This document shows positions 10,723 to 58,100 of a stretch of 64,000 nt of DNA, piece after piece (position 1 is the stretch's first letter; the number at the start of each line of letters is the position of its first letter). The notes under the pieces are model-generated. The model saw nothing but the letters and a program-made list of their open reading frames with translations. It was not told the DNA's origin and did no database searches. Position numbers and translations under genes: made by a program. The stretch is from Rhizaria sp. SCN 62-66 (taxonomy: Eukaryota): assembly GCA_001724265.1 (NCBI GenBank), contig MEDY01000087.1:62001-126000 (forward strand). Reading direction: 5' to 3'.

Positions 10723-10758
<36 letters not shown>

Positions 10759-17336: not shown

Positions 17337-20300
17337 TTACTTGCGGTTGAGAGCTGCTTCTTGTGCGCGTAAGTTCGCGTACGCACTGCTCCTAGTCGCT
17401 GCGAGAATGACTTCGATGTCGCTACCGTCAAGCGGGTGAGGCTGGAACCCTGTCGCTGGCGCGACCGCAATGCCGGCACTGCTGTTTCCAGCTGTGTTCG
17501 CAGTGTTGTGATCGCGCGCTGTGGGCAGAGTGACGACGCGAGTGCCGGAGCCAGCGGTCGGGTGCCAAGTGCGTACCAGCTGCAGCGGCTGCCCGTTGCG
17601 GCCGGTGCTCTGCTCCGACGGCATATCGGCGCTCACAAACACGCGACGCAGGGTGTCTACCTCGTGGTGCGGCACAGTCGCGTTCACCGTCCCCGCGGTG
17701 CCACTCACAGTCACCTTGCTCGCGTTGCGCGACGGGTCGGAGCCCACAGTCACAGCGCCAGAGCCGTAGAGCGCGGCAGTCGCAACGACGGCGGGGTTGA
17801 TCCCCAGCGCGTCAAGCGCCGCCTTCTCTTCGACAACAGCGTCCGCGTGCCTGCGCAGTGCCTCGGCCGCCTGGCGTGCCTGCTCGGCCCGCTCGCGCCA
17901 CTGCGCAGCCTCTTTGCGCGCGGCCGCGGCATCCGCGGTGCGCGCGGCGACGGCGGCCTGCATCTCTTGCGTCAGCGCGACGGCCTGCGCCAGCGCGTCC
18001 TCGGCCTCCGCCGCCTGCCGCTGGGCGGCCGCGAGATCGGCCGAGAGCACCTCGTAGTCGCGGTCCCGGCGCAGTGCAGTGCGCTGCAAGGCCTCAGACC
18101 CCTCGCGCAATGCTGCTGCTTCGCGGACAGCCGCGGCGGTAACTGCAGACTCGCGGGCTGCAGTAGCTTCGGCGGTGGTGGCACGCAGCTCAGCTTGCGA
18201 CGCGCGCGCGTTGGCCGCGATCATCTCGCGCTCCGCAGCAGCACGCGTCGCCTCAGCTTGCTGTGCTGCCTCAGCTGCTGCCGCCGCGCGGCCTTCTGCG
18301 GCGACTGCGCACAGCTCCGCAGTCCTGGTCCGCGCCTCGGCCTCGGCAGCGGCGCCCTCAAGCGCAGTCTCCCGGCCAGCGGCGTCGCGCGAGAGCGCGT
18401 CGACCTGGTTGCGTAACCGCGCAACCTCGTCCTTGACAACGGCGGCTGCGTCTTCAGCGCGGTATGCGCGCTCGCGGAACGCCTTAACGTCGCTCTCAGC
18501 ACTGTCCACCAAGGCGGCACGCGGGGCCAGTGCTGCGATGCGTGCACGAAGCACCTTAGCCTCGGTCTCGAGAGCACGAGCACGTTCAGCCGCGTCGGTC
18601 TCGCCCGCAGCGCGGAACAGCGCGGCTGCGTCGTGTTCCTCGTGCGCCAGCGCGCGGCCCTCTGCCGCCGCGGTGTGTGCGCGTGCGGCGGCGAGCTCGC
18701 GGCGCGTGCGCTGGAGCTCAGTGCCCAGCGCCTGCACAAGCGCAGCGACCTCTTCTAAGCGCGAGCTTGTGTCGGAGATCTCCTGGCGCAGCGCCTCGTT
18801 CTCAGCCTCCGCTGCAGAGGCGCGGGCTTCGGTGGCTGCTGACGCAGTAGTCGCAGCGGCACCGGCACCAGCAGCAACGGTCTCAGCCTGCGCGAGCGCA
18901 GCGCTGGCAGCGGCGAGGTCAGCAGTTAGCTGTGCAGCCTGCTCACGAGCGAGCTTGGCGCGCTCGGTCTCAAGCGTCAACAACGACTCGGCGCGGCGCG
19001 CGCGGCCCTCGTGCGCCTCGGTGTCAAGCCTCGCGCGGGCGAGCTCGTCCTGCGCTGCCCACAGGTCCTGCTCCAGGGCACGCGCACGTGCAGTCTCCGT
19101 CTCAAGACGGCTGAGAGCAAGAGAAAGCTGACCCGGCGCTGATGTGGGTGCCTCAGTCGGGTTGGACTCAATCACCATCGACACATCCGCGGCGGCCATA
19201 ACGCCGTCAGCATCATCGTCATCATCGTCTGAGTACTCGCTATTGTCGACAGCAGGTGCAACAGGGCGTACTTGTTTTGCAGCCAATTTGAGTGCTGCAT
19301 TCAGTTTGTCTTGAGTGGCCTCAACAACATCCTTGGCCTCTGCAAGAGCACTTTCAAGAGCACGAATGCGTGAGCGAAGTGTCTCCTCGTGCTCAGTCGC
19401 AGCTTGCGCCTGTGCCTGCGCCATCTCGAGCTGCTTCGCCATGAACTCGGCCTGCAACGCGCGGGTACGCGCCGCATCGAGCTCGGTCTTGTCGCCGGCG
19501 CGCAGTGCGTGCGCGGTCGCAGCCTCAGTCGCAGAGCGCTGAGCTGCGTCGGTAGCGGCGCGGGCGCGCTTCTCGGCGTCTGCGGCATCAGCGCGCGCGC
19601 TCTCGAGCATGCCAATAGTGGTAGCAAGACGGGACTCTGTGGTGAGCAGTTGAGCCTGTGCACGGCGCAACGCGGTGACAGCAGCAATGAGGCGCTGATA
19701 CAGCGCGCGTGCGATCGTGTCATCCTCAGAGACTGTGAGCTGAGCCAGGAAGGTATCAAAGCTGGAGAGATCACAGTGGAACTCAGCGCCAGCAAGTGAT
19801 GCTTCAGGCTGTTCCTTCTGTGGCTGCTGGGTACTCGCCAGCTTCGGAGCAGCGTTATCTTGGGCTTGCTCGAGAGCGCTCTTGAGCGCCTTTTGCAGCA
19901 TATCGATTTCACTGTTGCGCGCGCTGACAACTGCCTCGATCTCATTCAGCTCCTTTTCGAGCTGCTGAACGCGTTCGTCGTCCTGACCCGCCAAAGCATC
20001 GGCGCGTTCTGCTGCTTCCTGGGCAGCGTTGCGGGCAGCAAGAGCCTCGGCACGCGCACGGGCTGCCGCGTCGTTCGCAGCCTCCGCAGAGGAAAGTGCA
20101 GCGTCGCGGTCTTCGCGCAGTCGCTGCAAGCTCGCGATGGTCTCCTCAGTGACACGGCCAGCAACAGGAACAGTGTACATGTCACTAACAGAGCTGCGCC
20201 TTGATGCGTTGCGAGCAGCGGAGTGCTTGTTATTCGCGATGTTGGTGGAGTCATCTTCATCGTCATCATCGTCAGAAGAATGGAACACAACGGCGCGCCT

Positions 20301-23300
20301 GACACTACTCGGCACACCGTTCGCCGTATCCTCCGCAGCCGCCAGTGCGCGCGCGAGCTCATCGCAGTGCGCTCTGAGCTCGGCCTCGCGCTTCCCGTGC
20401 TGGTCAACGACAGTGCGCAGCGCGCGGTGGGCCTCCTCGCTCTCCGCTCTCGCCTGCAACGCGCGCGTCTCAGCCTCGGCAGCAGCGGCCTCGGCGGCGG
20501 CAACGCGGGCGTTGGCGGCGCGAACCTCGGCCTCAGCATCGGCGTTCTTGTACACAACCGTGGGCGCAGTGACGGTGGGCTTGCTTGTGTTGCTCGAGTG
20601 CGAGCGAGCCACAATCGCAGCCAGCTCGTCGCGCTCCTTCGCCAAGGCATTGATCTCGCCTGTCTTCTGTGCGAGCGCACGCGCAATAGCACCAACACGT
20701 TCCGCCACTGCGCGCTGCTCCTCATCAGCAGCAGCGTCAGCATCGGCACGCGCGGCGAGCTCGGACTTCAGAGCCTCAACCTCAGCCTCGGCAGCTGCAG
20801 CGCGGGTCTCGGCCGCCTTGCGCGCACGCGCGTCGGCGTCCGCGTCGCCCGCACGAGACTTGAGCGCAGTGTGCAGGCGCGCGATGTGGGACTGCGACTG
20901 CTCGAGCACGGTCACCAAGTCGCGCTTGTTGTACAGAGCGTCCTGAAGCAGCTCCTCGAGGTAGATGATACGGTTATACGCGATCTCCAGCCGGAGCTGC
21001 GGGGCGCCGTTGGCAACAACAGCCGGGTGAGCGACCGTGCTGTGCTCTGCAGGGTCACGGCGGAAGGTCTCCTCGATCGCGGAGAGCGAGGACGCTTCGA
21101 GCGGGTTCAGGTCGCTGAGATCAAGCGCGGAATCAAGCGTGACAGGCGCTCTCGCTCCGTTGGTCGCAGTGACGGCGGACTCGGCGTTAGGCGCGTTGGA
21201 TGAGAACATGTAGAACGATGGCGCGTCAGTGCCGTGGTCAACCAGCTCCCTCTGCTCAGCGTCTGTGCCGACGCTGTGCATGATCGGGGCAGACCGCTGG
21301 ACGTCGGCCATCGTAGCAGCGTTCACAGTTGCAACAGCAGCAAACGGAGTTGCGTCCGTACCAGCGTCGCGCATCATAACGGTTGCTCCAGCGGAAACAG
21401 CGCTCGTCATCGTGCCCGCCGTCGCGGTAGTAGGTGCGGTTGTTGCAGTGCTGACGCTCTGGAGCGTCGCAGTGGAAGCAGAACGGGGAACCCATGCCTG
21501 CAGAGGCTCGGACGACAGACTGCCACGACGGCCAGCCGGAGGAACAGGCGCACTTGAGTCGGCGTCAGTGCCAGCAGCCGCGAACATCGCGGCGAGTCCG
21601 GCGTTCGCCGCCGTGTCAGATGGCGAGACCTGGGTCCCCGCGCTGACGGCAGCGACCGCGGGCAGAGACAGAGCGTCGCAGCCCGTGTCGCAGACAGCTG
21701 CGGGCACTGTGGTCTGCGAGAACGAGTCCTGCATCGTGACTGTGCGTGCGGGGGCAGTCTGCGTCTCTACAGTAGCAGTCGCCAAAGCACTTGCGGCGGG
21801 CTCGGTGGCAGTGCTCTGGGTGCCCGTACTCACTGTGGTGGCGTAGAGGGCGCTGCTAGAGCGGACCAGATCCGCAGATACCGACGCGTCAGCCGTTGTG
21901 ACAGCACTATGCGCGGTCTGCGTCCCGGCGCTGCTGACAGCAGCAGGAGTGATGTTGTGAGCCGACTCAACAGTCTGCGTGCTCGCGCCTACGGTCAGTC
22001 TAGCTGCGTTATCAGCGCTAATGGCGCCGTCACCAGCGCCCGTCGACACAAATTGCGCTGCCACGGGCGCATCAGTGCCCACGGTCGCCGTCGCAACAGC
22101 CTTAACCACGGTTGCCTGCGCAAACAGCTTGGAGAGCGCCGCCTCCGCAGCCGCGCTCACTGCCACCTTGTCGCCGCCGTCGGTCGAGGGCGAGTGGCTG
22201 TGGCTGTGGCCGAGCTCGCACTGTGACGAGCACCGGTGCAGCCCACCGGCCGAGGGCTTTCCTGTGCCCCCGTAATGAAGAGGCGGGGGGAAATGCAGTG
22301 CAGGCGCCGGGGTGTGCGATGCGGGCGTGAAGGGCATGAGGCCGAGGTCGGTGCCGGAAGGCACGGAGAGTAGCTGCAGCGGGCCGTGGAGGAAGTCATC
22401 GGTCTCGGACAGAGGAGTGAAGCCACCGAGAGCAAGCGAAGAGTGCGCGCCCGCAAGCGCGTGCGCGTGTGGAACCTCGGGCTGAGGCGCGCGGCCCGCA
22501 GCGAAGGCGGAATTAGCGGACAGAGATGTAGTCAAGGCATTGATGGGCAAGGGCGGGTGCTGCGGCGGGATGGGCGCGATCGACAGGGGCGGGAAGGCGG
22601 TGACGACGCATTGTGCAACGGGAGACCCGCCGCCCTGCTGCTGCTGTGGCTGGCCTTGGCTGGGCATGATGTTGGTTGCCGAGTGGCTCACAGTCATCAA
22701 CGCACTAACATCGCCGCCTGCCGATGCATTCGCATGAGCAACAGCGGGAATAACAACGCTCTCCGTCGCGACGGTCACGAAGTAGGCAGTAGAAGGGTTT
22801 GCACTGTTGTTGGCAACAGTGACAGGCTCAGTAACAACAGTCTCACACTGTGCCGTCGCGTCAATAGCATCCACAGTGACTGCTTCAGTTGACACGGTCA
22901 CAAACTGCCCGTTGCTAACGTTCACAAACGACTGTTGTGCACTGGTCGGGCTTGTTTCGTCGTTGTCGTCAAACAGGATGCCCGCCGCGGTGATATCAAC
23001 CTGCTTGTCGCCCTCAGTGCCTCGGTTGTTGTTGATGAACGCGGCGGCGTCGAGCAGAGTACGCAGCCGTTGGCACTCGTGCTCCGCGGCAGCGGCGCGG
23101 TCGAGCGCGGTCTTGACGCCGTTCTCGGCCTCGGTGATCGCGTTGTGTGCGTGGCCAGCAAGCTCCTCGCGGGCGGCGCGCTCAGCAGCAACCTCTGCCT
23201 CAGCGTTGCGTGCGGTCTCGCTGGCGTCAGCAGCGGCGTTGAGGGCGACGTCGCGCGCGGCCTCGGCGGCAGCCAACTTTGAGTGCAGAGTCACGATCTC

Positions 23301-26300
23301 CGCGCGGGCCTCGGCCGTCTCGGTCAGCGCGGCAGTCGCAGCAGCCTCGGACGCCGCAGCAGCAGCGCGCGCGGCGGTGGCGCCGGCCTCAGCTGCGGCG
23401 GTGGCGGCGTGGGCGTGTGCGAGTTGCGACTGGAGCAGTGAGGCGGACTCGCCGGCCTCTGCGGCGACTTGGCCCCAGTGCGCGGTGGCGAGCTGAGCGG
23501 CCTGGAGCTCTTGCTTTAGTTCGTCGTCGTTGCCAGTGCTCTCAGCTGCGGTGCCAACCGCGGTGATTGTCGCGGCCGCAGGCGGGAGGGAGGCGGCAGC
23601 GCTGCTGCTGCGACCGGTGGTAGAAGCACCGAGGGCAGACTCAGCAAGCGCGGCGACAGCGCGGTCGCGCTCAGCCTCGGCACGCGCGCACGCAGTCTCC
23701 GCAGCGGCGATCACCGTCGCGGCCTCCATGCCAGCTGCGGCCTCGGCCTTCTCGGCGGCATCAGCGCGCGCCGCGGCCGCGGCGGTCTCCGCACGCGCGG
23801 CCAGAACCTCCTCCTGCGCCCGCGCCAACAGCGCAGCCGCCGTGGCAGCCTCAGCGCGCAGAGTGTCCGCGATCGAAGTCGCGCTCTGCAGCGCGGCGGT
23901 GACCGAGTCGATCTGCTCCTGCCCTTCGCTGCGCAGCCGCTGCCACTCAGCGTCGGCCTGCGCGAGCGTGATGAGTTCAGCGCCCGGGAACGCGCTCTGC
24001 AGCGCGGCCGCTGCGGCGTCCAGCCCCAGCTCGCGCAGCGCGGCCTCGAGCCCCGCGCGCTGGCCGGCCGCGGTCCGCGCCAGCGCGTCGTCCACGGCGG
24101 CCGCAACGCGCGCGTGGAGCTCGCTCTCGCCGCGCTGCCGCAGCGCGTCCATCTCGGCCGCGTGGCGCGCCGCCATCTCCTCCACCACGGCTGCCGTCGC
24201 CGCGCCGTCGCGCCCGCGCAGCGCCTCGGCGTAGCTCTCCACGGTCCCCAGAAGCTCGCTGCAGCGCTCGCGCGCCTCCGTCGCCGCGGCGCGCGCGGCG
24301 GCAGCGGACGCGGCCTCGGCGCGCGCGTCGGACCGGGCCGCGTTAGCCTCAGCTAGTGCGGTATCAGCCTCGGCTGCAGCGGACTCGGCGCGGGCGCGGT
24401 CGGCGGCTGCGGCGGATTCGGCGGCGGCGGCGCGCTCGTTCGCGGCCGCAGCGGCGGCGTTGGCGGCCTCGATGGCGTCACGCGCGTACTCGTCCGACGC
24501 AGTCAGCCTGTCACGGTAGCCCGCGGCGACGCCCTCGAGCAGCGCGAGGTCGCGCTTAGCGGACTTGAGCTCCGCGTCGGCGGCCGCGGCTGCGGCGGCG
24601 AGCGCGGCGTGGCGCTCAGTGCCGGTGCGCAGCGCGTCGGTGAGCGCGGCGTTGGCCGTGTGCAGCTCCAGCAGCCGGTTCTGCAGCGCAGTGTGTTCGG
24701 CCCAAGACACGGGGCGCGTGGCCGGGGGGTAGTCGTAGACGGAGACGAGCTCGTCCTGACTCGGGTCCTGACTGTGGGCCACAGTCTGAGGCGGTGCAGG
24801 AGCAATGGCATTAAGAGAAGACGGGGCAGCAGAACGATCCGGGGACGAAATCTTCGGTTTCTCGTGATCAACAAAGGAAGACGACTCAAGCTTATTGTTC
24901 GTTGTTGACTTGGCAGTGCCAGCATCAGGATCAGGGAGCTCAAACGTGACGAGTGTGTTATAACGCGGGTCAACATGCGCAGGCTTGCTGGCACCACCAG
25001 CACCAGACGAAATTAGAGGCGTGCTTGTAACGGAGACTGAAACAGCATTATGCACATCAGAGATAGCGGTCGGGCTCGCGGTGTTGCTCGCAACAGCAGC
25101 AGTAGCAGCAGCAGCCGGCGCGCGGGGACGGGCGGGGCTGCGGATCGGCGACGCGACGCGGGGGTTCGTGGTGACGACGACCTCGCCGTCCGCGTTGTTG
25201 CCACCGCGGCGGCGCGTGTGGGACAGCGCAATGGAGGCGCCCGTGTCGGAGCTCTCTTGGCCGGAGTCAGTCGAGTGGCCGCTCGTGTTGACCGCGTTGT
25301 TGGCAGGGGCGACGGGGCTACGAGTCGTGTCACCGTGATCGTGTGCGCGTGCAGCAACTGCAGCCGTGGTTGACTGTGCGTAGGCCTGCGCGTAGACGTC
25401 GTCGTATGCACCCGCACCAGAGTCAACGCCGGTAGGGGCATCGGTCGTCACAGGGACGTGTTCGTTGACCTCGTTGTGATCGGCTGCATTCAAGTCAGCG
25501 TGAACGTCGGCCTCAATCTCAGCACTGGTCTCTGTGTCATTTTCAGCATCACCATATGCGTACGCGTCGTCGCCCTCAAAGTCTTCCTCATAGTCTTCGT
25601 ATTCGGCGCCGTTGTCAACGTTGTTGCCCACATCAACTTGAGCGCTGTTGTCACCACCGTATCTCGGTTCAGCATCCGTGATACGACTGTAAGCGGGCTC
25701 CTGCTGCTGCGGGCGCGCTTGGGGAGGCTGTGGGGCAAACGGGTTTACACGGTGGCTCGCGAACGTCCCAGACTGCTGCGGCGCATACGTCGCATCAACA
25801 TGTTGCAGCTGCTGCGGTGGCTGCGGCTGCAGCGGTGGCTGCGGCTGCAGCGGCGGCTGCTGCGGCTGAGCCTGCGCCGCGCTGCGCGCCGAGTCGTCGT
25901 AATCAGAGTCCGCCAGCGTCTGCGCCAGGTCCTCCAGCGTGAGCGCGATGCGGGGGATATCGCGCGGCGGCAGCGCAGGGCCCGCGCCAGAGCCGGCGCT
26001 GCTGCCGCTGCCAGTCGCAGTTGCAGGCGCAGCGGTCAACCGGGACGGCGGTGGGACACCGGCAGTAAGCGAGGCCGATGAGGACGACGGCGCTGTGGTC
26101 GACGAAGAATATGTCGAAACAGGGTCGGTGACCGTTGGCTGCGACAACGCGTAGCTGTTGTCTAGCGACGCGACGGCGGGGCCGTACACAGGCGGCGACA
26201 CGGGCCGCAGCGGATTCGACTGTGTGTACGTGGCCAGAATGTCAACACGCGCCGCCTCGACCGCCGTGGAGTCGTCCAGATCCGCGTCGTCGGCGTTGTT

Positions 26301-27461
26301 GTTGATAGCGCTACTGTCTTCGATAGCGTCGGCGGTCACGAAGCGGTCACTGATGCCGGCGTTGTTCATGTCGGCAGCAAATGCGCTGCCGTCAATGCCA
26401 ACGGCGCCGTCGAGCTCGGCGCGCCGCTGCTGCGCCGCCACCGACTCCGGCGTCGACTGCGCAGAGCCCGGGCCAGAGCCCGCGTTGGAGCTGGCGCCAG
26501 AGGTCACGCCGGAGCCGGCCGCGGAGCTTTGCGCGGAGGAGTCGGTGATGCCGGCGAATGAGCGGGCGAGGATGCGATCGTACGCGGCCAGCGGGTCGGC
26601 ACTTAGATTAGCCGCCGCGGAGGAACTGGCACCGTCCAGTCTGGAGCCGACAGCCGCGGAGCGACCAGCGTCCGTCTAGTTCGCGTAGAGAGCGGCGTAG
26701 GCGGCGGCGACGTCGTCGCGGTCACTGTCGTTGCTGTAGTGGTTATCGCTCTCTGCATCAGCGTCAGCGTCAGCGTCAGCGTGAGTGTCAGTGTAAGCAA
26801 CGTTAGCGTCTGCATCGACATCGTCGTCGTTGGTGACGTCGTCATCAGCGTCGTCATCCTCGGTGTAGGTATTGTTGCGGTCAAAATTAGTGTAGCGATC
26901 ACCAACTTGCTGCGCGGCCCCGTCTGTGCGAGCAAGAGCAGCGTCAACGATCGCATCTGCAGCAGCTGCCGCGAGGGCGTCAGTCGCAGAGTCAGTGTAG
27001 ACATCGGGGTTAGCAACGTGCGTCCTGTAGTCAACGACGTCATCCTCCTCGCTGATCGCGTCAGGGCCGTGCATGCCGCTGCCAGAGAACGCTGACGCGA
27101 AGCCAGGCGCGGCGGCCGAGGCTGGGGCGGAGGATAGCATGCGCGCGGCGGTGGCGGCGGCGGCGGCGTCGGGTGACAGGATGTGCGGCAGCGGCAGCGC
27201 GTCGGAGGGGGAGAAGAGGCGCCGCGAGGTGTCGGCTGAGTGGGCAAACGAGGACTCTGCCGTGCTGGGTGAGACGAAGGGCTGGAAAGCAGACGCGGCA
27301 GGGCGGGACGCGGCGGCGCGGTGAGGGGGGGTGAACGGAGCCATATCACCTGTCGTGGCCACTGCAGGGGCGCGAACGCGGTCAACCGCGGCCGAGGAAC
27401 CGGGATGAGGGTACGTCCCGGGTGGGTCGGAGTGACTGCCCGGGGCGCGTGGGTCGCTCAT
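17337..27461 (-). CDS. Giant Ala/Glu-rich coiled-coil protein, ~3374 aa if the single in-frame TAG at 26676-26678 is read as sense
   Basis: ORF 26676..27461 (ATG start) and ORF 17337..26507 are in the same frame, and the 168 nt between them is open. Long heptad-like A/E/R segments flank a Thr/Ala-rich region with TQT-like motifs. Stop is TAA. Confidence 0.8.
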
Positions 27462-27852
27462 TGTTGGCGAGTCAATCCCAAGACGTGGGACGTGTGTGCA
27501 GGTGGGAGGGGTTCGAACTGGACTAGGGAGGCGCGAATGGTTTTGAAGACAAGGTCAGGCAAAGGTGATATCGGATATTAAGAAGATTTAAAAAGCAGAA
27601 TCCGTATAGTAATACTCAAACACTTATTGGATTCAAACTATTTCAAATTACACGATCATATCGTTCGTATTTTTATGTTTGAAGACAGGCGCCAAAGTGG
27701 CTCGTTCAGCTGCAGTCGGCGATCGCCAGCCGCTCGGTTCGCAAAAAGTCGGTGGGGCCGGGCGCAAAGCGGTCAAGAGGTTTCCGCAAGAATGAAAGCG
27801 TTCGTTCAAACGTCCGTCAACAGGTCTTTCGTACTCGAAAGTTTGTTTTCCC

Positions 27853-30383
27853 ATGTCGGAAGTATTTCGCAATAAGAAGTCGCGTCGCCTTGAAGGCAAC
27901 GCCGTGTTGGAGCGCGTGGCTAAGGCGCCCCGCTCGGCCGAGTCTGAGCAGGCCCCACAGGCGTCGGCCCGCCAGGCGCGCCAGACCGAGATCGACGGTT
28001 TCCGCGCCCACATCCGCACCATGGACACTGAGCTGTTCGAGAGCAAGAAGCACATGAACCACGTGGTGGCGCTGCTCAAGTACCTGTCTGTGCGCTCCGA
28101 GGAGAACCCCGACGGGTTCCCTGTGGCCACGATCATCTCGGCCTCGCAGGTGCTGCGCCGCTTCTTCGTGCTCTACCTCCGCCGCAACGAGTTCTCGCTC
28201 TACTCAGCCTCGCAGCGCCACCAGGCCGAGCTCAACAAGAGCGCCGTGGGCAAGATCCAGGAGTGGCTGGCCACACAGCTGAAGAAGTACGTCGCCGCGA
28301 TGCTCGCTTTCGTCGCCTTCGCGCAGCGCGACGACGTCCCCAACGCGCTCCAGATCGCCGCGATCGACTCCGTCATTGACGTCGCCATCGTCGCCGCCGG
28401 CACCGACACCCAGGCGCTCTCTGCGCTCGACGCCTACGCCCCCCTGCCTCAGGTACGTCACATATCCGTCACATATACCACATATCGGTAACATATCCAC
28501 TTTCTCGCATCCAACTCGTGTGCTTTGCTTATGTTTGACAGATTCTTTTCACGGAGTTAAGATCTCACCTTGTATTGTCTTCTCTTTTTTTCTGTGTGTT
28601 TGCTCTGCGCAGCTCCTGATTGCGATTGCGGCCGAGCCGCAGCGCCCCACCGAGGTGACGGCGCACTTCACCGTCTCCTGGCTGGACCGCTACGACGACC
28701 TGCGCGTGGCGGTCCTGCGCGCGCTCTACAAGCTCGTCGCGGGCGGCGGCGTCGCGCACGAGGCCTTCGCCGCGATCCCCGTCGTCACTGCGCTCAGTGA
28801 CGCCGGCGCGCTCTCGGCGCCCGCGATCCACGAGAACGTATTCGCGTTGCTCTGCGACGTCAAGCCCAACCACCTCAGCAACGCCGTGTGCGTGCCCGCC
28901 GCCAAGCCCGTCAAGCCGGCCGACGCGCTCGCCCGGCAGAAGAAGTTTTTGTCTGACGCCTGGCTGGCGCTGCTGAAGCACCCGTTCTCGGCTGAGGGCT
29001 ACAAGCGCGTGCTGCTGGCCGCCGAGACGGTGATCATCCCGGCCGTGCAGAACCCCGTGGCGCTGGCCGACTTTCTCACCGACTCGTACAACCTGGGCGG
29101 CATCGCCTCGGTGCTCGCGCTGGGCGGGCTCTTTGTGCTCATCACAAAGCACAGCCTCGAGTACCCCAACTTCTTTCCCAAGCTCTACTCGGTCTGCGAC
29201 ATCACCGCCGTCACGGCTAGGTACCGCACGCGCTTCTTCTCCCTCATCTCGCTCGTGCTCTCAGGCTCCTACCTACCCAGCTACCTCGTCGCCGCCTTTG
29301 CCAAGCGCCTCTGCCGCCTCTCGCTGCTCGCGCCGCCGCCTGCCGCGACGTTCGTGCTGGCGCTGGTATTCAACCTCATCCGCAAGCACCCCATGATCTC
29401 GTCCCTGGTCAACCGCTCCATGGTCGTGCAGCGCGGCAACCTCAAGCCGTCACTCATGCCCGCGGCCGAGTTCGGCAAGCTCTACCGCCTCGACGGCAGC
29501 CACACCGTGGTAGACAACAGCGCCGAGGCCCAGGACTCGCACGAAGACGTCTCGGGCCAGGGCGCCGCCGCCGCCGCCGCCGAGGCCGAGGCCAGCAAGC
29601 AGGCTGCGCGCCCCATGTCGCTCTTCGCGGCGATCGACCGCGCGTCGGGCGCGGCGGCGGCCACGTCGCAGGCCGTTGCGGCGACATCGGCGGCGTCGGC
29701 CGCGCTCGGCGGGCTTATCCTCGGGTCCGGCAACACCATCCAGGTACGTTTGAACCCAAAATATCCCAATAACACACTCTATTTAATTTCATGATGTGTG
29801 ATTACATCTCACTGTGTTTCTGTCTATTCTATTTTCTGCTGTTCTCGCCTCCTCCTCGCAGGCGACTTCGATCGAGATCGGCAAGATCGTCAACTCTGCG
29901 CCCCTGCTGGTCAAGTCCGCGGCGACGGCGACGGAAGACGGGATGTTCGAGAACCACGACGGCGTGCAGGTGACTCTGGACGCCGAGGCCTGGCTCGAAG
30001 GCAAGGACCCATTCGTGGAGTTCACCAATGACCCCGCGGCGGCGTGCGCACTGCAGTCGTCGCTGCTCGAGATCCAGGCGCTCTGCGAGCATTACTGCCC
30101 CGACGTCGCGCGCCTCGCCAAGATGTTCTTCGCCGAGACGGCGCCTAAGGTCGGCCACGATATTGCGCTCTTCACCAGCCACTCGTACGCCAACATCTTC
30201 GAGTACGAGATCATGCACAAGAAGAACCGCATCGTTCCTAAGGCCTTCGAGAAGCCCATCACGCTGCTCGGCCGCAGCGCGCGCCCGCTGACGGCGGACG
30301 AGAAGTTCGACGACGAGGCGCGCGCGCGCGTTGCCGCGATCAACAAGATGCCCGGCGTGCTTGAGACCATCTTCTCAGCTTGA
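27853..30383 (+). CDS. NOC4: Nucleolar complex protein 4 (CBF/Mak21 domain), 750 aa, 3 exons (27853-28452, 28613-29743, 29862-30383)
   Basis: DFLTDSYNLGGIASVLALGGLFVLITKHSLEYPNFFPKLY, RYRTRFF, YLPSYLVAAFAKRLCRL and ALQSSLLEIQALCEHYCPDVARLAKMF match Noc4. Two phase-0 GTACGT..CAG introns. Stop is TGA. Confidence 0.92.
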
Positions 30384-31481: not shown

Positions 31482-33122
31482 TCAAAGCAGCGTGAACTCC
31501 GGCAGCGGCGACTGCAGCAGCTTGGTGTGCACGTCCTGCGGCGCCAACCGCTGGCTCTTGGGCGGGGTCTGGGTGCCGGTGAGCAGCAGCTGGGCCGGGG
31601 CGGCGGCCAGGGCCGGGATGAGCGCCGGCACGGGCAGCGGGGCCAGCAGCGTCGTCGACGGCGCGTTGAGCGACACGCGGCGCTGACTCTGATTCTGGCG
31701 TTGGCCCGAGCTCGCGATATCGAGCGGAACAATGGCGGCATCAGTCGCATCAGACGCGAAGCTGTTTAGAGCGAAGCGCGGACTGCTACCGTGGCCGTGG
31801 CTGAGGCTGAGGCTGTGGTCGTGGTCGTGACTGCTGTTGCGCTGCTGGTGTGTACTGGCACTGCGCGCCGGGCTGTAGGTCGCAGAGGTCGCCGGCGAGC
31901 CGAAGCGCGACACCGGCAGCACCGCGGTTCTCGCGGCTGAGTGCGCCGAGTGCGCGGGGGTCGCTGCGGGCGCAGCGGCGCCGGCGGCGAGGCCCGGGAC
32001 CAGGGGGGCCGTGTACACAGACTGCTGCTGGTGGTGGTGATGCGGGTAGCCGCTGTTCGCGCTTGACTGCAGTCTAGAGAGGCTCTGTTGCGCGGCGGTG
32101 CTGTTGTAGCCGAAGCCGCCGCCGACTGCGCCGCCACTGACGGCGCTGCCGTTGGCGTAGGTGCTCACGGTCGTGACCGTGGGCAGCGGGGCCGGGGCGG
32201 AGAGCGGGAACAGCGGCACCAAGGCCACGGACGCGGGCGCAGCGGACGCATTGGCGGTGTGGAAGGACGGCGAAAACGAAGCACGTTGTTGCTGCTGTTG
32301 CTGTTGAGGGAAGAGCTGCGAGTGCTGATGCTGTTGTTGCTGAGCAGCACCAAAGCCGAACAGTGACAAGGATGACGCAGGCGGTGTGAACACGTTAGCC
32401 GAGTTGAAGCTCTTCCGCGTGGCTCCCGTCGCAGTCGTCGACCCGAGCGTGCGGGTGACGTTGCTGGCAGACAGAGACGCGCCGAACGCGTTCACGGCGC
32501 TCGCGCTCCAGACGCCGCCCGCAAACGCGCCGAGGCTGCCGCGGCTGCCAAAGACGGCGCCGTGGCCGCTGAAAACGAACGCGGGGGCCGTGGGAGAGCT
32601 CGCGTGCGCAGTTATGCTCGTAAGGGTGGAGGTGGAGCGGAAGCGCACCGAGGGCAGCTCGACGGGGGAGCTAAAACCCAGCCGCCGGGGCCACTGGGAG
32701 CTCAACACAGGGCTCGGAGGCAGCATGAACGAGGGACGGAAGGTGCCAAAGGGGCCCGGCACCGCGGCGCCCGCGGCCGCGGCGGCGGAGGCGGCGAGCG
32801 TGAAGCTGAGGCGGCGGCAGCGCATGTGGAGCGAGTCGGCACGCGGGGACAGCGGTGGCGACGCGTAGGACACCGAGACCTAACGGTGTTGTGCCTGCGC
32901 ATGACCATATGTGTGCAGCGTGGGGGCCGAGAGCTGGGCGTAGAAGCTGGGCAGCACTGGCGAGGTGTAGTAATGGCTCCGGGCGCGGATGACCACGGTG
33001 ATAAACTTGCCGAGGTTGCGGCGTGCGCGGCGCATCGCGAGCTTGGAGTTGGCCAGACGACGCAACGGCTCATCGGCGAGCGCGCGGCGCGTGCAGGACG
33101 CAACGCACCGCTGGCGGGCCAT
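31482..33122 (-). CDS. Uncharacterised Ser/Ala/Pro/Gln-rich protein, ~546 aa, with one in-frame TAG at 32880-32882
   Basis: ATG-initiated ORF 32880..33122 ends in TAG and continues in frame (GTC TCG GTG...) into ORF 31482..32873, which the track opens at a GTG. Stop is TGA. Confidence 0.65.
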
Positions 33123-34030
33123 GTGGCAAAAGCGTAGAGACGCGGGTGAACGAGGGCGGCGCGGCGCGGAACGACGGAGAAGTGGTGACGTCGCCTGTCG
33201 GGCTTTCTCGAGTCACTCTCAGAGGAGCTGTACTGACACAAAACGACATTAAAAAGAAGTGCATATAGATTGAATGAATAATGTGTTTAAAAATGATTGG
33301 CATAGACTGTGTTATATGCAAAAATAAGGAAGGCTCACGGCGTATGTCAGTGCCGAGAGAGACACACAACGTTGACCACCGAACGTGAGGTCGAAAGGAG
33401 ACAAATGTTCTCGATATACACTCCACCGTCGTCCCCAAGTTGTCTCATTCGCGCATTATGCAGCTTTAACTACCAAACCATATGCTGCCAAATTGATAGT
33501 CATATGCGCGCCTACTGAAGCCATAAGCGCGCCGCGGTCTGGAGCGCTCAGCCCTCCTTGACCTTGGAGTCAGACAGTTGCCAAGTGGAGAGAGGCCGAC
33601 CGACTCGCCAGAGTCCAGTCAGCCAGTTTGACTGGGAAATCAAGCCGCGAGTGTGGGTCAAATCTCGCTCACTCGCCCCGAGCTGACCGAGAGCGGGCTC
33701 AAGGCAGAGAGGGCGGCCAGACGCACTTGATGCGGACCTGGGTGTTTGGCGCTGCTAATTTGGTATCTTTTCGCCGGATTTCAATTCAGCGCATTGTGAT
33801 CTCAATGTATTAGCTCGTGGTGTACTAGTGTGCATCTTTATATCTTTCTCGATGTGCTGTATTGGCGTCAATCTAGACTGCAAATGCGCGTTGTCCATGA
33901 TTGGGGCCTGCGTCACCCCTCGCTTCGCTTTTGCCTTAGCGCACAGAGCCCGTCGCATTGCCCAGTCTTCTCACCCTGCCCTTCGTCTTGTTCCGCTAAT
34001 TTTATAGCCCCGCGAGCTTACTCTGCGTGC

Positions 34031-35090
34031 ATGAATCCCTCTTCTGGTCTCCACTTGTACGGGACCAGCTTGCAGGATTCGTCTGCAACAGCTGCGCAGC
34101 TGCGGTCGTCCTCCTCCCCTTCCGTCGCCCTCTCCTCCTCCACCGGCTCCTCCGCGCTCATCTCCGCTACCCCGGCCTCGGCGGACATCGCAGATGCCGG
34201 TCTCTTCACCGCGCGCGCCGCTGGGCTGGAGGACCCGATCAACAAGACCCCTTCGCTGACCTCTGACCGCAACCCAGCGTGGTCGTCGTCCTTCGCCGAC
34301 TCGTCCTCTGTCGGCCCCCTCGGCTCGCGCTTCGGGTTCTACTCCGACTCGACCGCGCTCGGCGCCTCGGCGGCCTCGGCCACGGGCGCGTCGGCCGTCG
34401 CGCGCCCCGGCGACGCCGGCGCCACCGACGCTTTCTCCGCGCCGCTGTCCTCTGCACTCTTCAACTTCACCGGACTCGGCTTCTCCGCACTCGACTCGTT
34501 CCCATCAGCGTCCTCCGTTGCCGCCACGGGCGCCATCGCATCAACAGGCCCCGGCGTTGCGAGCTCCCCCGCCGACGCCGCGGGCAAGTCCGCCGCCGGC
34601 TCCGTTCTGGGCTCCGACGTCGCCGTCGCTGGTTGGGACTCCCTCCGCCCCCTCTGGGGCCAATCCCAGTCCGCCTCCGCGCCCTCGGCCTCCGCTTCCG
34701 GCGCGAGCTCCAACACCGGCGCCGGCAGCGGCGACGTGCGCTACGGTGGCAACGGCGGCTACGGTGGCAGCGGCAGCGGCTACGGCGGCCTCGGCCTGGG
34801 TGGCGGCAACAGCGGCTACGGCCACGGCCACGGTCACGGCCACGGCCACGGCGGCATGGACTCGGGCTACGGCGGCCACGGCCACCAGCAGCAGCACCAG
34901 CACTACGGCATGTCCGGCGGGAACAACAACAACAACAATAACAACAACACCAGTCACCACAGCGGCGGCCGCGGCTACGGCAACCAGAACAATAGTGGCT
35001 ACAACACCAACAATAACAACAGCGGCGGCTACGGCGGCCACCGCAACAACAACAGCGGTGGCGGCAACTACCGCAACAACCACCATGGCC

Positions 35091-35126
<36 letters not shown>

Positions 35127-44287: not shown

Positions 44288-47200
44288 ATGCCGGTGGCCC
44301 CATGCAACACCGTGTCGTCCTCGTCTGACGCCCCCGCATCCGCTGCGGGACGCCACAGCTCCGCTACAACAAGTAGGGCGCCAGTGGTTGCGGTGCCCAG
44401 CAATGGCAACAATGCAAGCACAACTCCTGTTATTGCAACGACCTGGGGGAAGTATCCTTCAGTCGTACGCACATCTCCCGTTCCTATCACAGTACCTGCC
44501 CAGGTAGGCCTCCACGCGAATGTGAGGAATGGTTACGATCGTGGCCACGACCGTAACTACAACGATGACGAAGGCAGCAACCGTGAGCGCGGCCAGGACC
44601 TTGCCCGTGGAAGTGAAGGCACCGCAAGTTACAACAGTCCCTCGGCGCAGGGGACTGAACCCCCGCGCTCTCTACACATTGTTCGTGCATCTGAGCGCCG
44701 TAACGCTGAGCAGGCGGCGAACGGGCTGAGCTCTTTGACTACCAATGTTATGTCTCCCAACAGCAATGGCACACAGCGTGTCGGACAACCAGGGAAGTCC
44801 ATCATCACGGCTAAGGGGAAGACCATCATCACTACAAGCAAGGGCAATTTGACCCCCGCACCCTTAAGTGCGACTACAGCAGTCTCTACAGGATCGGTTC
44901 CTTCCGGTCGGATCATTACGACGCAACGCGATGCTGCAACAGGAGCTGCACCGATGTCACTCACGTTCTCTGGCGCGAACCATGGCATCACGTTGACATC
45001 CGCCGTCCTCAGTCAGTACAACGCATACGTGCCAATTGCATATCTTGGCGACCCTATGAGCAACAACAACGTCAGCGTTGTGAACACTCCCTTCGGCCCC
45101 ATTCACCTGCCGTTACAGCTGCCTCTTCAGTATCATGCACCGGTTGTTCCCGACGACCATGCTGTGACACCGCCTCTCGCCCCCGCTATCGCCGAGGTCA
45201 TGCACCGAGAGCTCGCTGCTCTTCGCAATGATCAGCCCGTATCAATATTGTATGACGAGTCGGATGCTCACCGGCCCAAGACAAATCATAACACTAGCAC
45301 AACAAAGCCCATGAGCTCGCCCTCGGCTGACCTGGCACCTCTCAAAAAGGTGAATGAAATGGTGGATGTGTCGCCTCAAAATGTCATCTCCGTATGTAAA
45401 TTGCAATTGCACTCTGCTTGACTTGTTTTTCCTAGACAGAAAAAAAAGCGCGTATTGACGCTTCAAACACTGTGAAATTGTGATGTTCGATTGAATATTT
45501 CGTTCGTGGATCGGATGAGTACCGTACCTCCATTTGATCGTCGAAATGTAACGCCCACCGCGTCCTCTTGTTTTCACCGATACGCTATCAGTGTGCTGAT
45601 CTCTTGACTCACTCATATGTCTCACTCTGTCTTGGAACAATCTCTCTTGTTTTGCTTTTTCGCTTTTGTTATGCCTTGTGTTGCGTCGCTCTTTGATAGT
45701 CCAACAAGTTGAACATTGACGACTCACATGCAAAGCCCACTGTGTCTGGGATGTCCGCGCTTAAAGAGGCGACCGTCGCTGACTCAGTCAAAGCTGATCC
45801 CTCTAAGGCAGTGATGAGCGAAGAAGAGCGTCTGGCGCTGAAGGCTGCTAAGAAGAATGCCCGCAAGGAACAGAAGCTTCGTGAGAGTCTCGCCAGCGCT
45901 GATGCGGAGAAGGATGCTGCGGAGCGCGCTATTGCCGAACGCGAGCAGAAAATCGTTGCCAATGCGATTACTCCGTTTCTAGCTACGCTCCCTCCACGCC
46001 ATGAGGCCGCCGGCGACGCCACAGCCGCTTAGCCAGTAGTCGACGTGGCAGTAAGCAACGTAAGTACGGTGTCTGCTAGTCTAGAGAACGCAGCTCCTGT
46101 TCAAAACGCGCCTACCGACGAAGTATCGCAGGTCCCCTCCTCTGAAGCCGCGTCAGCTCCGATCATGTCTCACCCGGTCGTTCAGGTGGGTATACAGTCT
46201 ATCCCCGCTCAGTCTGCACAGTCCGTCCCCACCCGCGCCCCCCCTCTGTCCATCGCTGTTCCCTCAGCGTCAGCCTCAGTCCCCATGACCGATGGCCCTG
46301 CTCTCCGGAACCCAGACCAGTATCGATCCTCTCTATTTGGGACTAACACAACGACTCCTCGTCCTATCAGTGGTCCTGGACACATGTCTGGGCCTGGGCT
46401 TGGGTTTGCAGGTGACCACCGCCGAGACTCTTTGCACCGCCCCCCACAGTCATATCAGCAACAACAGCGTGGTGATCCTCGTGCTGAACGTGACCCTCGC
46501 GACTACTCCGAAGGTCGTAGCTCCCTTGATCGCCGTCCAGACTCTCGCAACTATGGCGACCTCCGTGACTACAGGAACCGTGAAAGGTATGAGAAGGATC
46601 GTGACTGGTACGAGAAGGGTCGTGACTGGTACGAGAAGGACCGCCGTGATCGTGAGCGGTATGAAAGGGAGCTGCGCGAACGGGAGCAATGGGAGAAAGA
46701 GCATCGGCTGGAGCGGGAGAGGCAATTGGCGTGGCAAAATCGTGACCATCGCGTTGCTTATGACCGGGACCGGGATCGGGACCGCGACCAGCGTGACAGG
46801 GACAGGGATTTGAGTCGTTATCAGGCTGAATATGAAGCAACCGATCGTCCCCGTTCTCAGCAGCTTGAAACCTCCCCTTATCCTCGTCAGAACATCAACA
46901 ACACCCCCAGCAGTGACAGTGAAGTGGCACCCTCCAATCCACAAGCTGCAGTTAATCTTGCGACTCGAACCTTTTCGTCCGCAACTGGTAACTCAGGACC
47001 TGGACTTGCAGCGCAACCAACTGCCGCCGCACCCCAGAGTACCGCAGATATCTTTCCCACTGCTGCATCTTACGCTCTTGGTCCCATCGGTCGACGTCCG
47101 CCCGCTCTTGCCACTCTCTCGACTCAAGTTGCGACTGGGAGAGTAGGGAGTCCTATCGACATCGATGACGACGATGATGATGGTGATATGCCTCCTCCGC

Positions 47201-50200: not shown

Positions 50201-51096
50201 GAGAGGTGAGCAAGACTGTACCACGCTGCTGTGAGATCTGTCGCGGCCGCAATCTCACACCTATCATCGGCAATCAGTCTCCAGTTGCTTAGACGGTGAC
50301 ATCTGCAGCACAGCAACAACACGTCAAGAGCAACAAGAAAACGACATCCCTGTCGACCACATCGTCATCTGCATCGGTCTCAGGGCGCGTTCCACCAAGC
50401 AGCAGTCCCACTCTTTATCAGCGCCTTGTCGAATCCAGCAAGATCAGCAACGTGAATGCGGCAAGCACTCATGTCCCATGGACACCTAGTGTTCGTTGCG
50501 GCGGCGGCAGCGACGGGAATACGAGCACGCAAGCTGTTGACATCGGCAGCAGGGATATTAGCAATGAGGACCTTGCCGCTGCAATCTCAGGTTCAAGCTC
50601 CAACGATACTTCTGTCGCCCCAGTCTCTACGAATGTTCATATTAGCGGCGCTGTGGGAGCAACTGCTTCGGTCGAGAAGGTCACTGACTTTTCATTCCAG
50701 GCCAAGGAGGAGCCCGTCTTCACAAGTGTGCCTAACAAGCTTGCTGGAACTGTCGTGTCCGGCGCGTCTAAGTCCTTCACTGCCTTCTCTACTCTGCCAC
50801 CGCCGCCGCCATCGCGTCCCCTGCAGCAGCAACAGCAACAGCAGCCGGTGCGTAAGCCTGTTGTGCTGTTGCCGATGCAGTCTCCGTACGAGGCGCTAAC
50901 TGGTGCGGTGACGGTGGAACTTAGCAATGACGATGACAATGGTAACAACGACATGATGATGACACAAAATGATCTCTTTGGTCCTGCGTCCCTGCCTGTT
51001 GCATCGTCTGACTCCTTCGCTCTTCTATCTCCAGATGGAGGCTGTACAGCTGCTCCGCCCAGTGATCAGGCAACCTCTTCTGCTATGTCTAATTAA
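44288..51096 (+). CDS. Large uncharacterised protein (~2166 aa) with an RD/RE-rich tract and a CxxC-CxxC zinc ribbon, 2 exons (44288-45391, 45700-51096), two in-frame TAGs (46030, 50290)
   Basis: Donor GTATGT at 45392 and acceptor TGATAG| at 45699. ORFs 45709..46032, 46045..50292 and 50296..51096 share one frame and are separated only by single TAG codons. Final stop is TAA. The 5' start is uncertain because CAG|ATG could be an acceptor. Confidence 0.75.
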
Positions 51097-55176: not shown

Positions 55177-58100
55177 ATGCTATTAGCTTCTTCTAAGCCG
55201 CGCCTCAGTAAGTCGCTTGTGGCCGTGGCGATGCTTGTACAACTACTCGCAGCGATGTTACCTGTGCCTGCTGTAGCAGCCGGGGGCGGGATTGACTGTC
55301 AAGCTAATGCGGAACAAAAGCCAATTCAGTTAACCCCGCAGCTTGCGTTGCTAGCGGGGGACGTGATTAGCTTCCGCGCAGTACGTTCATCAACCGCCTC
55401 TGTACACACTTCACTTCAAGTCACTTTAAGTCACAAACATCGCTACTTTCCTGTTATCATTCGATAGGTCAAAATTTATCAACCACACGCTTTTTGTAAT
55501 TATGCGTTGCTTTTTGCCTAGAATTATGGCACAGTAACTGGTTATCTTGCTCCTCAAGATACGACTGCCTCGAGCAAAGACTGTTCGACTGTGCCACTTA
55601 CAGTTGTAAAGGAGCAGTCGCGTACAACGCAGGTATTTCGTAATGAAACTCAAACATGTCGTTTATCAGTGTTTTATAATAGCTTTACGTTGTTTTTCCT
55701 TGGAATCTGTGAATTCTACAAAGATATACCTTGTTTAAGAACGCTGACATCGCACGCATCTTCCTTCCCAACCTCTTGAATCTCTCTCACACACTGCAGT
55801 TCATCATCGTCCCCGTGGCTGTGCTCGACGATGAGTCCATCGACGTCGCGTCCCAGACGCTGCCCACAGCGACGACGACCGCGCCGCGCCTCGTGTCGAC
55901 AGTGCAGCTCATCCATATCACGGACGGGCGCATGCTCGGCACGCGCGCCTGCTCTACCCCGCGGTCTGTGTGCAACTCAGCGCCGGTGTTGCTGCCCAAG
56001 TCGTTCACCTACCCGTGCAACCACACGATGAAAATGTTCAACAGCATCTGGGACCTGGAAGCGCACAACATCACGGCGCAGGCGTACCAGGCGCTGCTGA
56101 GGGACCGGTCGGAACAAAGTAAGTGAAAAGTTACATATAGATCACTGATCACAAGAGATCTCTCTCGAAATAATCGCTGTATATATATTTTTCGCTCGTG
56201 GGTAATGTATCTGACGGTTTTCCTCCTTCATTTTGGTTGTCTTTGATTCAACTGTGTTCATCACACTTTGCGCGTAGCTGATGCGACTGGTCCGACGAGT
56301 CTGCTGCCGACGGCGCCAGGACTGATATTCCCCTCAATCCCCAACATCAGTGCAAACTCACAAGGCAGTGGCTTCAACATCTTCAGCAGCAACAGTAACG
56401 TCAAGACTGCCAACATCAGCACGAGTGGTGAGAGCACAAGCTCGGCAGGCGCGACTGCGATCAACGCGAGCGCAAGCGAGGCTGGCACTGAAGCTGACAA
56501 GGACGCAGGAGGCGTCGACGCCGCAATCGAGGCGGCAATGACCGCGGCGGCGCTGTCGCTCGCGGAAGACATCTGCCTCGACGAGACAATTCGTGGCAGC
56601 GGGCCGATCAGCGCGCTCGGTTATCAAAGTCGAAATAGAGGCGCTGCGCGCACATTCAGCGCATCGGCCCAAAGCCAAGCCACAGGTCATAGCGCTGACG
56701 CGAATGATATTGTTGACTATGATGAGTATGATGATGATCTCAGCAATGATCTTGATTAGGATAGTGGCGGACTCACGGGGAAACGACGCGTGAGTCGCGT
56801 CTTTGCCCCTCGCTGGCAGCCATACGGCTCCGCAACGCGCGCGCGCAGTCACTCCACAGCTACTGGTCGCAGCCACACAACGCTCGCTCACAGTCATCTC
56901 GACACGGCGGACCAACACAGCAGCAGCAGCGAACCCGTCAACAGTGCCCCTGAGGGCGGCCTCGTGCGCAGCGGCAAGCACGTGCGCGTCAGCGCCAGAG
57001 CGGAGCGGCGCCACGCGGAGGCGGAGCTCGCCGCGGCGCCAAACCCGCCCGCGGCGAGGCCGAGCACCGTCTGGCGCGACCTGCGCGCGCAGCAGCGGCT
57101 CCTGCAACAGCAATATGAGCAGCAACAGCAGAAACAGCAGCAAGCGCAGCAGCAACATCAACGGCTGAAGAATGAGACGCCGTCGAACGAGGGTCTAGGC
57201 GGACATACGCACAGTGTAAGCACTTTAGCAACAGGCAGTGCAGCTGCAATGGCGGCGGAGACGCGCGACAGGCGTGACCGCAGCACGATGCCAGTGAGAT
57301 CGCAGTCACCGCAGCCGTCACAGTCGCCGAGCAACAGCGGTGCGCAGGCGCATAGCAGCACTGGTGACCCACAGTCACTTGGGACAAACCCGATGTCGCA
57401 AAATGACAGTTACAGCGCCAAGTCAGGCGGTACAGGTGCACACTCAAGTCCTGAAACTGCACGAAACGCAGTTATCGCAAGCGAGAGTGACGCCGACAGT
57501 GAAAGTGGCCGTGAGCGTGCTGAAGCTGCAGTCTCGCGCGAGCGCGCGGAGCAGTACCTCACCACTCTCGAGCGCTACGGCAGCAACCCTGCTCTGCTCA
57601 GGAAACAGCTCCAGTGGCAACCACTCGACACAACCGGCGCCACTAAGAGCAGTGCAAATACGAGCCAGAACACGAACTCCGCGGAATCGGCGTCAACAAG
57701 CACTGGCGGGGCTGCTGAACCCACTACCGCTGCCTCCGAGACCGCTGCGGCTGCTGCTGCGTCCGAGACGACGGTGGCGACGGCGGCAGCAAGCACGACG
57801 ACCGAGGCCGTCATGCCGGGCACGATGCTCGGCAGCGGAAGCGACGCCACGGACCTCATGAACATGATCAACGTCGGCGGGTTGGCCTCGTTCCTGTCGA
57901 GCAGCGGCGGTCTCACCGCGGGTACGGGCGTCACCACGCCAGGCCAGTCGCAGGGCGTCGAGGCCACGGCGGCGGCCGCAGCGGCCACGGCCACAGGCTC
58001 GCTGATCGGGCTTGACCCGAGCCAGATCTTCAAGCCGGGCGATTCGCTGGGGCTGCAGTCGACGCAGGAGAAGATGCTGCAGTCGCAGCTCAGCATGGTC

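Follow-up and report, generated by a model that had tools for sequence, protein, structure and literature searches.

A TAG codon within a long open reading frame

The window analysed here, a stretch of 64,000 nucleotides on contig C87 of a eukaryotic assembly of 34.9 Mb in 714 contigs, raises the question of whether a TAG codon inside a very long reading frame terminates translation and, if it does not, which residue it specifies. An earlier note on this DNA had proposed that the TAG, on the minus strand, joins an ATG-initiated ORF of 261 codons to an ORF of more than 3,000 codons, and the frame reading bore this out. The minus strand reads CTC TAC GCG AAC TAG ACG GAC GCT, with the TAG at 26678-26676; 3,112 open codons follow it (17337..26675) up to a TAA at 17339-17337, and the GTG at 26507 lies 56 codons past the TAG, as had been claimed. 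The result is a single-exon coding frame of 3,374 codons plus TAA with one internal TAG (17337..27461, minus strand).

The frame starts with an ATG at 27461, preceded by ACA, and an AT/T-rich stretch (27501..27700, GC 0.34-0.46) lies 5′ of this ATG; such a spacer is absent around the TAG. The N-terminal 261 codons (26679..27461, minus strand) are Ala/Ser/Pro-rich and then Asp-rich, with coding-like codon use. The TAG itself is codon 262 (26676..26678, minus strand; LYAN-x-TDAGR) and, judged from sequence, would be a sense codon, most likely for Glu; the first in-frame ATG after it is 103 codons downstream. Two regions of the downstream part, residues ~901-1500 (22962..24761) and ~2101-3200 (17862..21161), are Ala/Glu/Leu/Arg-rich and Pro/Gly-poor, and this composition makes them probable coiled coils. 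The whole 3,374-residue protein matched no family in a Pfam search, a metagenome scan with its first 454 residues found no relative, and an Atlas search with residues 2150-2700 returned hypothetical proteins only, which were uninformative and of low value for recognition.

A codon model, for which 34 long frames without stops in the same genome served as the training set, preferred this frame in 16 of the 17 30-codon blocks between codons −270 and +240 around the TAG and disfavoured it upstream of the ATG at 27461; GC was 0.56-0.79 throughout the blocks. The further claim that no AT-rich intron or donor lies nearby was confirmed, as the 129 GT..AG pairs, 60-500 nt in length, that reach across the TAG or end at it all had GC of at least 0.56 and T of at most 0.18, and none of them had a donor of the tested types. 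The four introns placed by homology in this genome had GC 0.37-0.52 and T 0.33-0.45. A spliced junction using the TAG as its acceptor, which would have spoken against a single frame, was looked for in the sequence, and no intron-like stretch was found; neither was a stable RNA structure at the TAG (z 0.01). The view that the TAG is no true stop and that the two ORFs form one gene was supported, and no support was found for splicing, two separate genes or local readthrough. The genome-wide pattern described below, the TAGs that lie inside eRF1 and DDX46/Prp5, and the presence of a gene for tRNA(CUA) would explain the TAG as a case of stop-to-sense reassignment.

Further TAGs occur in the window. 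A second long gene on the plus strand (ATG 45751 to TAA 51094-51096) has in-frame TAGs at 46030..46032 and at 50290..50292, the latter 267 codons before its TAA. An uncertain candidate at 56757..56759 (plus strand), in an acidic run of the frame 56247-60137, failed the flank-GC filter, and another at 32880..32882 (minus strand; frame 31482-33212) may be upstream of the true start. In a Pumilio-family gene (33800-38449, plus strand), two in-frame TAGs (35552, 35576) fall in an apparent intron and not in exons. The window also contains, at 8391-14216 on the minus strand, an open frame of 1,941 codons whose product has ankyrin repeats and successive NPF motifs.

TAG versus TAA and TGA across the genome

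About 1 Mb of the assembly, less than 3% of the genome, was read (198 loci comprising 970,776 bases with overlaps, in addition to the window and 13 small loci). By one rule applied identically to the three stops, which demanded 100 open coding-like codons on each side and GC-rich flanks, the lone stops within coding sequence in this ~1 Mb were TAG in 21 cases, TAA in one and TGA in none. The GC3-rich codon use of the genome means that single-base errors on its own codon table would yield TAG ~70% of the time; tested against such errors, the 21:1:0 split had p ~0.005. The one TAA flanked in frame by coding-like sequence, on contig C272 (plus strand), could reflect an error or mark a genuine gene end.

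The stops directly following coding-like sequence were TAA (35, the commonest), TGA (23) and TAG (10), and the frame continued for at least 100 codons past seven of the ten TAGs, past two of the 35 TAAs and past none of the 23 TGAs. Among the other three TAGs, one lies in an exon of DDX46/Prp5, one is followed by 52 further coding-like codons, and one by 16 codons and a TGA. Apparent gene ends, defined by the codon-model filter in ~3% of the genome and not as transcript ends, were TAG at most once versus 58 TAA or TGA. Taken together, these data suggest that TAG is very probably a sense codon in this genome.

TAG is also the rarest codon, at ~0.02% (31 among the 142,828 codons of long frames, the 31 including intronic ones), and the next rarest is ATA with 67. 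Extrapolated to the whole assembly, about 1,000 or more TAGs would be exonic. The flank-GC filter was passed by 24 of 33 TAG sites. The +4 base at TAG sites matched the background (p 0.6), and a leaky readthrough context (CARYYA or CUAG) was found at none of the 21 sites, so that with the structure score at the window TAG (z 0.01) the signs of programmed gene-specific readthrough were lacking.

Conserved families yielded few usable sites. Many TAGs inside family matches were dropped as 3′ splice sites, and searches for kinesin, AAA, SNF2, ABC, UCH, Ion_trans, DEAD and Tyr-kinase domains turned up few TAG-only matches, many of them splice acceptors. In ten dynein genes, no usable TAG was found in the conserved cores or the long motor-domain frames, and an all-against-all comparison of them yielded mainly off-frame noise.

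A single tRNA with anticodon CUA resembles tRNA-Glu

A pattern search of the assembly revealed one tRNA(CUA) gene, at C84:76009-76081, with 58 bits on the Rfam tRNA model, a T-run behind it and a canonical cloverleaf. The contig that holds it has 63% GC and encodes kinases and kinesins as well. When the pattern was widened and tRNA-Gln(CUG) was used as a query, the assembly gave neither a further CUA gene nor a CUA tRNA of Gln origin, and no UUA tRNA; such searches would overlook genes that have long introns or lie beyond the assembly.

With the anticodon masked, tRNA(CUA) was compared with 25 tRNA types of the same genome. It shared 45 matches with tRNA-Glu(CUC) and 39 each with tRNA-His and tRNA-Glu(UUC), and its 31 and 28 matches to the two Gln tRNAs ranked 21 and 25 of 25; 45 matches are also reached by 12% of tRNA pairs of different amino acids. 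Only the two Glu tRNAs have the same UCCCA/UGGGA acceptor stem as tRNA(CUA), and its A46 likewise occurs in both Glu tRNAs and is absent from the Gln tRNAs. The short variable loop is unlike that of the genome's own Leu tRNAs. The sequence A36-A37-A38 would presumably permit isopentenylation of A37, aiding the reading of codons that start with U. Three genes of the GluRS/GlnRS family were found, with no sign of an extra copy, and tRNA-Glu(CUC) occurs in at least 8 places versus one gene for tRNA(CUA). Finally, tRNA(CUA) has U11-A24, U13-G22, A46 and no residue 47, and the same four features are described as Glu determinants in E. coli in the available text of PMC9976931; other papers are likewise cited here by identifier for those parts of their text that were available.

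In the mechanism that we propose, tRNA(CUA) would have arisen from tRNA-Glu(CUC) through a C36A change and would be charged by the cytosolic GluRS. It would then beat eRF1 at UAG often enough to give one coiled-coil protein of 3,374 residues with Glu262 from the window gene. With a single gene copy of this tRNA, UAG would work poorly as a codon, and both its place as the rarest one and its near absence from conserved cores would follow.

Glutamate or glutamine at TAG sites of conserved genes

In-frame TAGs were found in exons of otherwise intact genes for eRF1, DDX46/Prp5, a UBE2J1-like protein, a Brr2-like helicase, four kinases, a USP and an ion channel, among them conserved genes that an organism can normally not do without. 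In eRF1 the TAG lies mid-exon and aligns without gaps to human E107, a column with E in 105, D in 10 and V in 1 of 116 homologues (four of 120 matches, longer than 500 aa, were excluded); the nearest relative has Val, not Glu, at this position. The TAG of a NEK kinase gene stands opposite E in an orthologue that is 88% identical over the kinase region, and none of 31 aligned Glu residues of that orthologue stands opposite Gln in the gene. The column of the UBE2J1-like gene is mostly acidic (D 21, S 6, E 5, G 4, T 2, K 1, gap 3 and Q 0 among 42), and the alignments through the TAG are ungapped in all three genes. The column of the DDX46/Prp5 TAG, in an exon just 5′ of the Q motif, has Q 10 and E 6, counted in the 108 of 146 matches in which the motif was found. 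The residues of the Brr2-like column, M and K, do not decide the matter, and the ion-channel TAG lies outside the alignments shown and gives no residue. Overall, the conserved sites bearing TAG are mostly variable columns; Glu is indicated at eRF1 and NEK, an acidic residue at the UBE2J1-like site, and elsewhere the columns are variable or favour Q.

Pfam bits summed over six sites were 373.6 for E, 372.1 for K, 371.9 for Q, 368.9 for S, 364.1 for Y and 361.5 for L, with Asp not among the residues scored. These sums argue against Leu, 12 bits down, and against Tyr and Ser, and do not separate E, K and Q (E exceeds Q by 1.7 bits).

Besides these genes, C53:73526-74485 (plus strand) encodes a kinase domain within a frame of ~7,100 codons, with the TAG in an insert of the domain. 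At C55:67652-89044 (plus strand) there are open frames of 12,541 and 11,291 codons with several ion-transport domains, one match having an internal TAG; a giant voltage-gated channel protein may be encoded there.

If TAG is accepted as a sense codon, the comparison of tRNAs and the conserved columns together make Glu the likely residue. The main competitor is a reading of UAG as glutamine, in which GlnRS would charge the CUA tRNA through U35, U1-A72 and G73 despite its Glu-like body. The flanks of the 24 TAG sites speak for it: their Gln score was +17.9, where true Gln sites give 25.1 ± 15.1 and true Glu sites −15.0 ± 6.0, and their Glu score was −12.0 versus 6.1 ± 3.8 at true Glu sites. TAG was found in none of 1,204 acidic and none of 113 Glu-rich contexts. 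One ubiquitin copy, part of an element-like gene, carries TAG at a position occupied by Gln in the host ubiquitin, the DDX46 column leans to Q, the change from CAG to TAG is a transition, and E. coli GlnRS often charges amber suppressors through U35, according to the available text of PMC9976931. On the other hand, tRNA(CUA) is among the tRNAs least like the genome's own Gln tRNAs, no Gln-derived CUA tRNA was found, the NEK orthologue has E, and Q occurs in none of the 116 eRF1 and none of the 42 UBE2J1 homologues. In polyQ contexts, moreover, TAG was seen twice versus 139 times for the synonymous CAA, that is ~70-fold more rarely, while the non-synonymous CGG, AAG and GAG were seen 5, 4 and 10 times. 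Gln-rich flanks would also be expected under Glu if CAG-to-TAG changes were tolerated in disordered regions. On balance we consider the glutamine reading unlikely, and we favour, as the probable reading, a nuclear code in which UAG is sense, most likely for Glu, and UAA and UGA are retained as stops.

The element-like gene just mentioned, on contig C681 (plus strand), encodes ~500 residues of unknown repeats, the ubiquitin copy with the TAG, and a Peptidase_S74 chaperone domain.

The release factor and ambiguous decoding

The eRF1 of this genome, whose gene on contig C63 (minus strand) has its in-frame TAG in the N-domain, carries the changes T32S in the GTS loop (T in all 116 homologues), G57S, T58K, L124M and L126M, and retains E55 and Y125. 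The nearest relative retains T32, G57, L124 and L126. In human eRF1, T32S left termination largely unaffected at all three stops (PMC3632111, available part). Because this change is mild in the human protein and E55 and Y125 are kept, decoding of UAG as an amino acid may be weak or may still compete with termination, and competition of eRF1 with one tRNA gene may account for the rarity of TAG. A leaky UAG in the eRF1 gene would tie the level of the release factor to readthrough.

These features raise the alternative of an ambiguous, unfinished reassignment, in which a suppressor tRNA contends with a UAG-reading eRF1 to give full-length and truncated products or a mixture of Glu and Gln, and UAG is tolerated at few, lenient sites only. 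The low count of TAG (31 of 142,828 codons, under the 67 of ATA), its absence from the motor-domain frames of the ten dynein genes, the single tRNA(CUA) gene versus at least 8 places for Glu(CUC), the mostly variable columns and the mild effect reported in PMC3632111 would all fit. Against it stand the TAGs in eRF1 and DDX46/Prp5, two genes for which frequent truncation of the product should be harmful, and the near absence of TAG from apparent gene ends; furthermore, Blastocrithidia also avoids its reassigned codons in highly expressed genes (PMC12153298, available part). We rate ambiguity as slightly less probable than glutamine, and retain an assigned UAG, most likely Glu, as the preferred reading.

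Sequencing errors, separate genes and changes in RNA

It is very unlikely that the in-frame TAGs are base-call errors, nonsense alleles or pseudogenes, or that the window holds two genes or a gene-specific readthrough signal. What can be said for such errors or alleles is that TAG is the commonest single-error product under GC3-rich codon use and that no independent run covers the window TAG. Read depth was 0 at 26546-26679 in all four sequencing runs compared (window 24000-28000), and of the runs that contain the stretch, from bioreactor, wastewater and microbial-fuel-cell metagenomes, the three best may be the assembly's own source; one possible source run contains all of 425 words sampled from the stretch (fraction 1.00). 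With depth 0 there, a base-call error at the window TAG is excluded only by the genome-wide pattern and this possible source run. An RNA run gave exact contigs in both ORF parts (26753-26890; 24000-24105, 24542-24701 and 24722-24957) and none across the TAG, which establishes neither one transcript nor expression. The 21:1:0 split and the existence of a cognate tRNA oppose this explanation. The eRF1 TAG is also present in L199, a contig assembled separately, within a stretch of 1,626 identical bases, and database proteins abut two other TAGs, P0164 starting just after one and P0166 ending just before another, with the reservation that the samples may be shared with the assembly in each case. 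Two genes or local readthrough are opposed by the lack of a spacer between the ORFs, of RNA structure and leaky contexts, and of a +4 bias.

Scarcely credible is a TAG removed or changed in RNA (by an intron, or by A-to-I editing to a Trp codon) or read as pyrrolysine, since, although many TAGs in the family searches are 3′ splice sites and ARAGORN labels tRNA(CUA) 'Pyl' from its anticodon, there is no intron-like stretch at the window TAG, the eRF1, NEK and UBE2J1-like alignments are ungapped, Trp occurs in 0/116 eRF1, 0/42 UBE2J1 and 0/108 DDX46 homologues, the cloverleaf of tRNA(CUA) is canonical, and the assembly, possibly incomplete, has no PylS (TIGR02367) match.

Lineage of the organism

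The organism perhaps belongs to Cercozoa. The assembly has about eleven dynein heavy-chain loci, by which the cell was probably flagellated. In its ubiquitin monomer genes, two additional residues, Met-Ser, precede the usual start, and no polyubiquitin junction was seen in them. An insertion between polyubiquitin monomers is a marker of Cercozoa and Rhizaria (PMC12930898 and PMC13746701, available parts); the extra N-terminal Met-Ser recalls it, although the genes here are monomers. At C3:11200-14030 (plus strand), a divergent ubiquitin is encoded by separate tandem monomer genes, each with a two-residue N-terminal and a three-residue C-terminal extension, and two of the three copies look damaged.

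The sole 18S gene of the assembly lies on contig C706, which has 41% GC, and looks heterolobosean in our judgement; on a contig of this GC it may have been co-binned from another organism. It is spread over 4.4 kb by several insertions, which resemble group I introns and one of which may encode a homing endonuclease. In an eRF1 tree built by a quick method, the query joined only one protein, on a long branch. A check of EF1A/EFL matched eRF3 instead.

Comparison with known nuclear codes

UAA and UAG almost always carry one meaning. In the available literature, to which subscription papers contributed little, we found neither a code with UAG as Glu and UAA as a pure stop nor a report on this organism. 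Nuclear codes that reassign UAG alone give it to Leu, Gln or Ser (PMC11687900), and UAG as Glu occurs with UAA as Lys (PL0344; PMC10553269) or with UAA as Glu (peritrichs and Blastocrithidia; PMC11687900, PMC12153298), as described in the available parts of these papers.

The closest parallel is Iotanema spirale (Panek et al., 2017, PMC5304391; PMC9161772), in which likewise UAG alone is sense, read as Gln, with UAA and UGA as stops. In both cases Thr32 of the eRF1 GTS loop is changed while a relative keeps GTS (here P0004). In Iotanema the change is T32G, linked to lost UAG recognition, and standard-code relatives keep GTS, according to the available text of the same two sources; here it is T32S, Glu is favoured and TAG is very rare. 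A further difference is that a tRNA(CUA) gene is seen here and looks Glu-derived.

Other UAG-only codes differ in the residue. In the rhizarian exLh (Sainouroidea), possibly of the same supergroup as the present organism, and in three TARA phyllopharyngean ciliate genomes, UAG is Leu (PMC5304391, PMC11687900, available parts), whereas here Leu is 12 bits down and the variable loop of tRNA(CUA) is short. UAG alone is also sense, as Gln, in Hartmannula sinica, Trochilia petrani and Protocruzia tuzeti and, as Ser, in Scotinosphaera (PMC11687900, available part); these residues differ from the best reading here, and the lineages are others.

Among the codes with Glu at UAG, the tRNA(CUA) genes of Oligohymenophorea sp. 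PL0344 (UAG Glu, UAA Lys) are likewise most similar to tRNA-Glu, but that species has ten CUA genes and reads UAA as sense (PMC10553269, available part), while the present genome has one CUA gene and TAA as its most frequent stop. Glu at UAG is also found in peritrich ciliates and Blastocrithidia, where, unlike here, both UAR codons are sense (PMC11687900, PMC12153298, available parts). Blastocrithidia has a tRNA-Glu(CUA) and avoids the reassigned codons in highly expressed genes, and UAG makes up 1.4-1.7% of its codons (PMC12153298, available part) versus ~0.02% here.

Implications

We regard it as an evenly balanced question whether this uncultured flagellate has an undescribed nuclear code, with UAG as Glu and UAA and UGA as stops, caught early, with one Glu-derived CUA tRNA, an almost unchanged eRF1 whose own synthesis would require UAG to be read through, and TAG at ~0.02% of codons. 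Glu would be new among the nuclear codes that split UAG from a UAA stop; if the residue were Gln, a code already known would have arisen independently once more. The genome shows parts that earlier transcriptome studies only predicted, namely a CUA tRNA beside its likely parent and a little-changed eRF1 whose own gene contains TAG. As the genome is GC-rich, AT pressure could not be the driver of such a reassignment. TAG is so rare that this may be an early stage of reassignment, at which competition between tRNA and release factor would be measurable, and, if so, the organism would offer a natural test of the ambiguous-intermediate model. Screens based on core genes would miss such low-frequency reassignments, and since gene callers split genes with TAG, as at P0164 and P0166, relatives are mis-annotated in protein databases.
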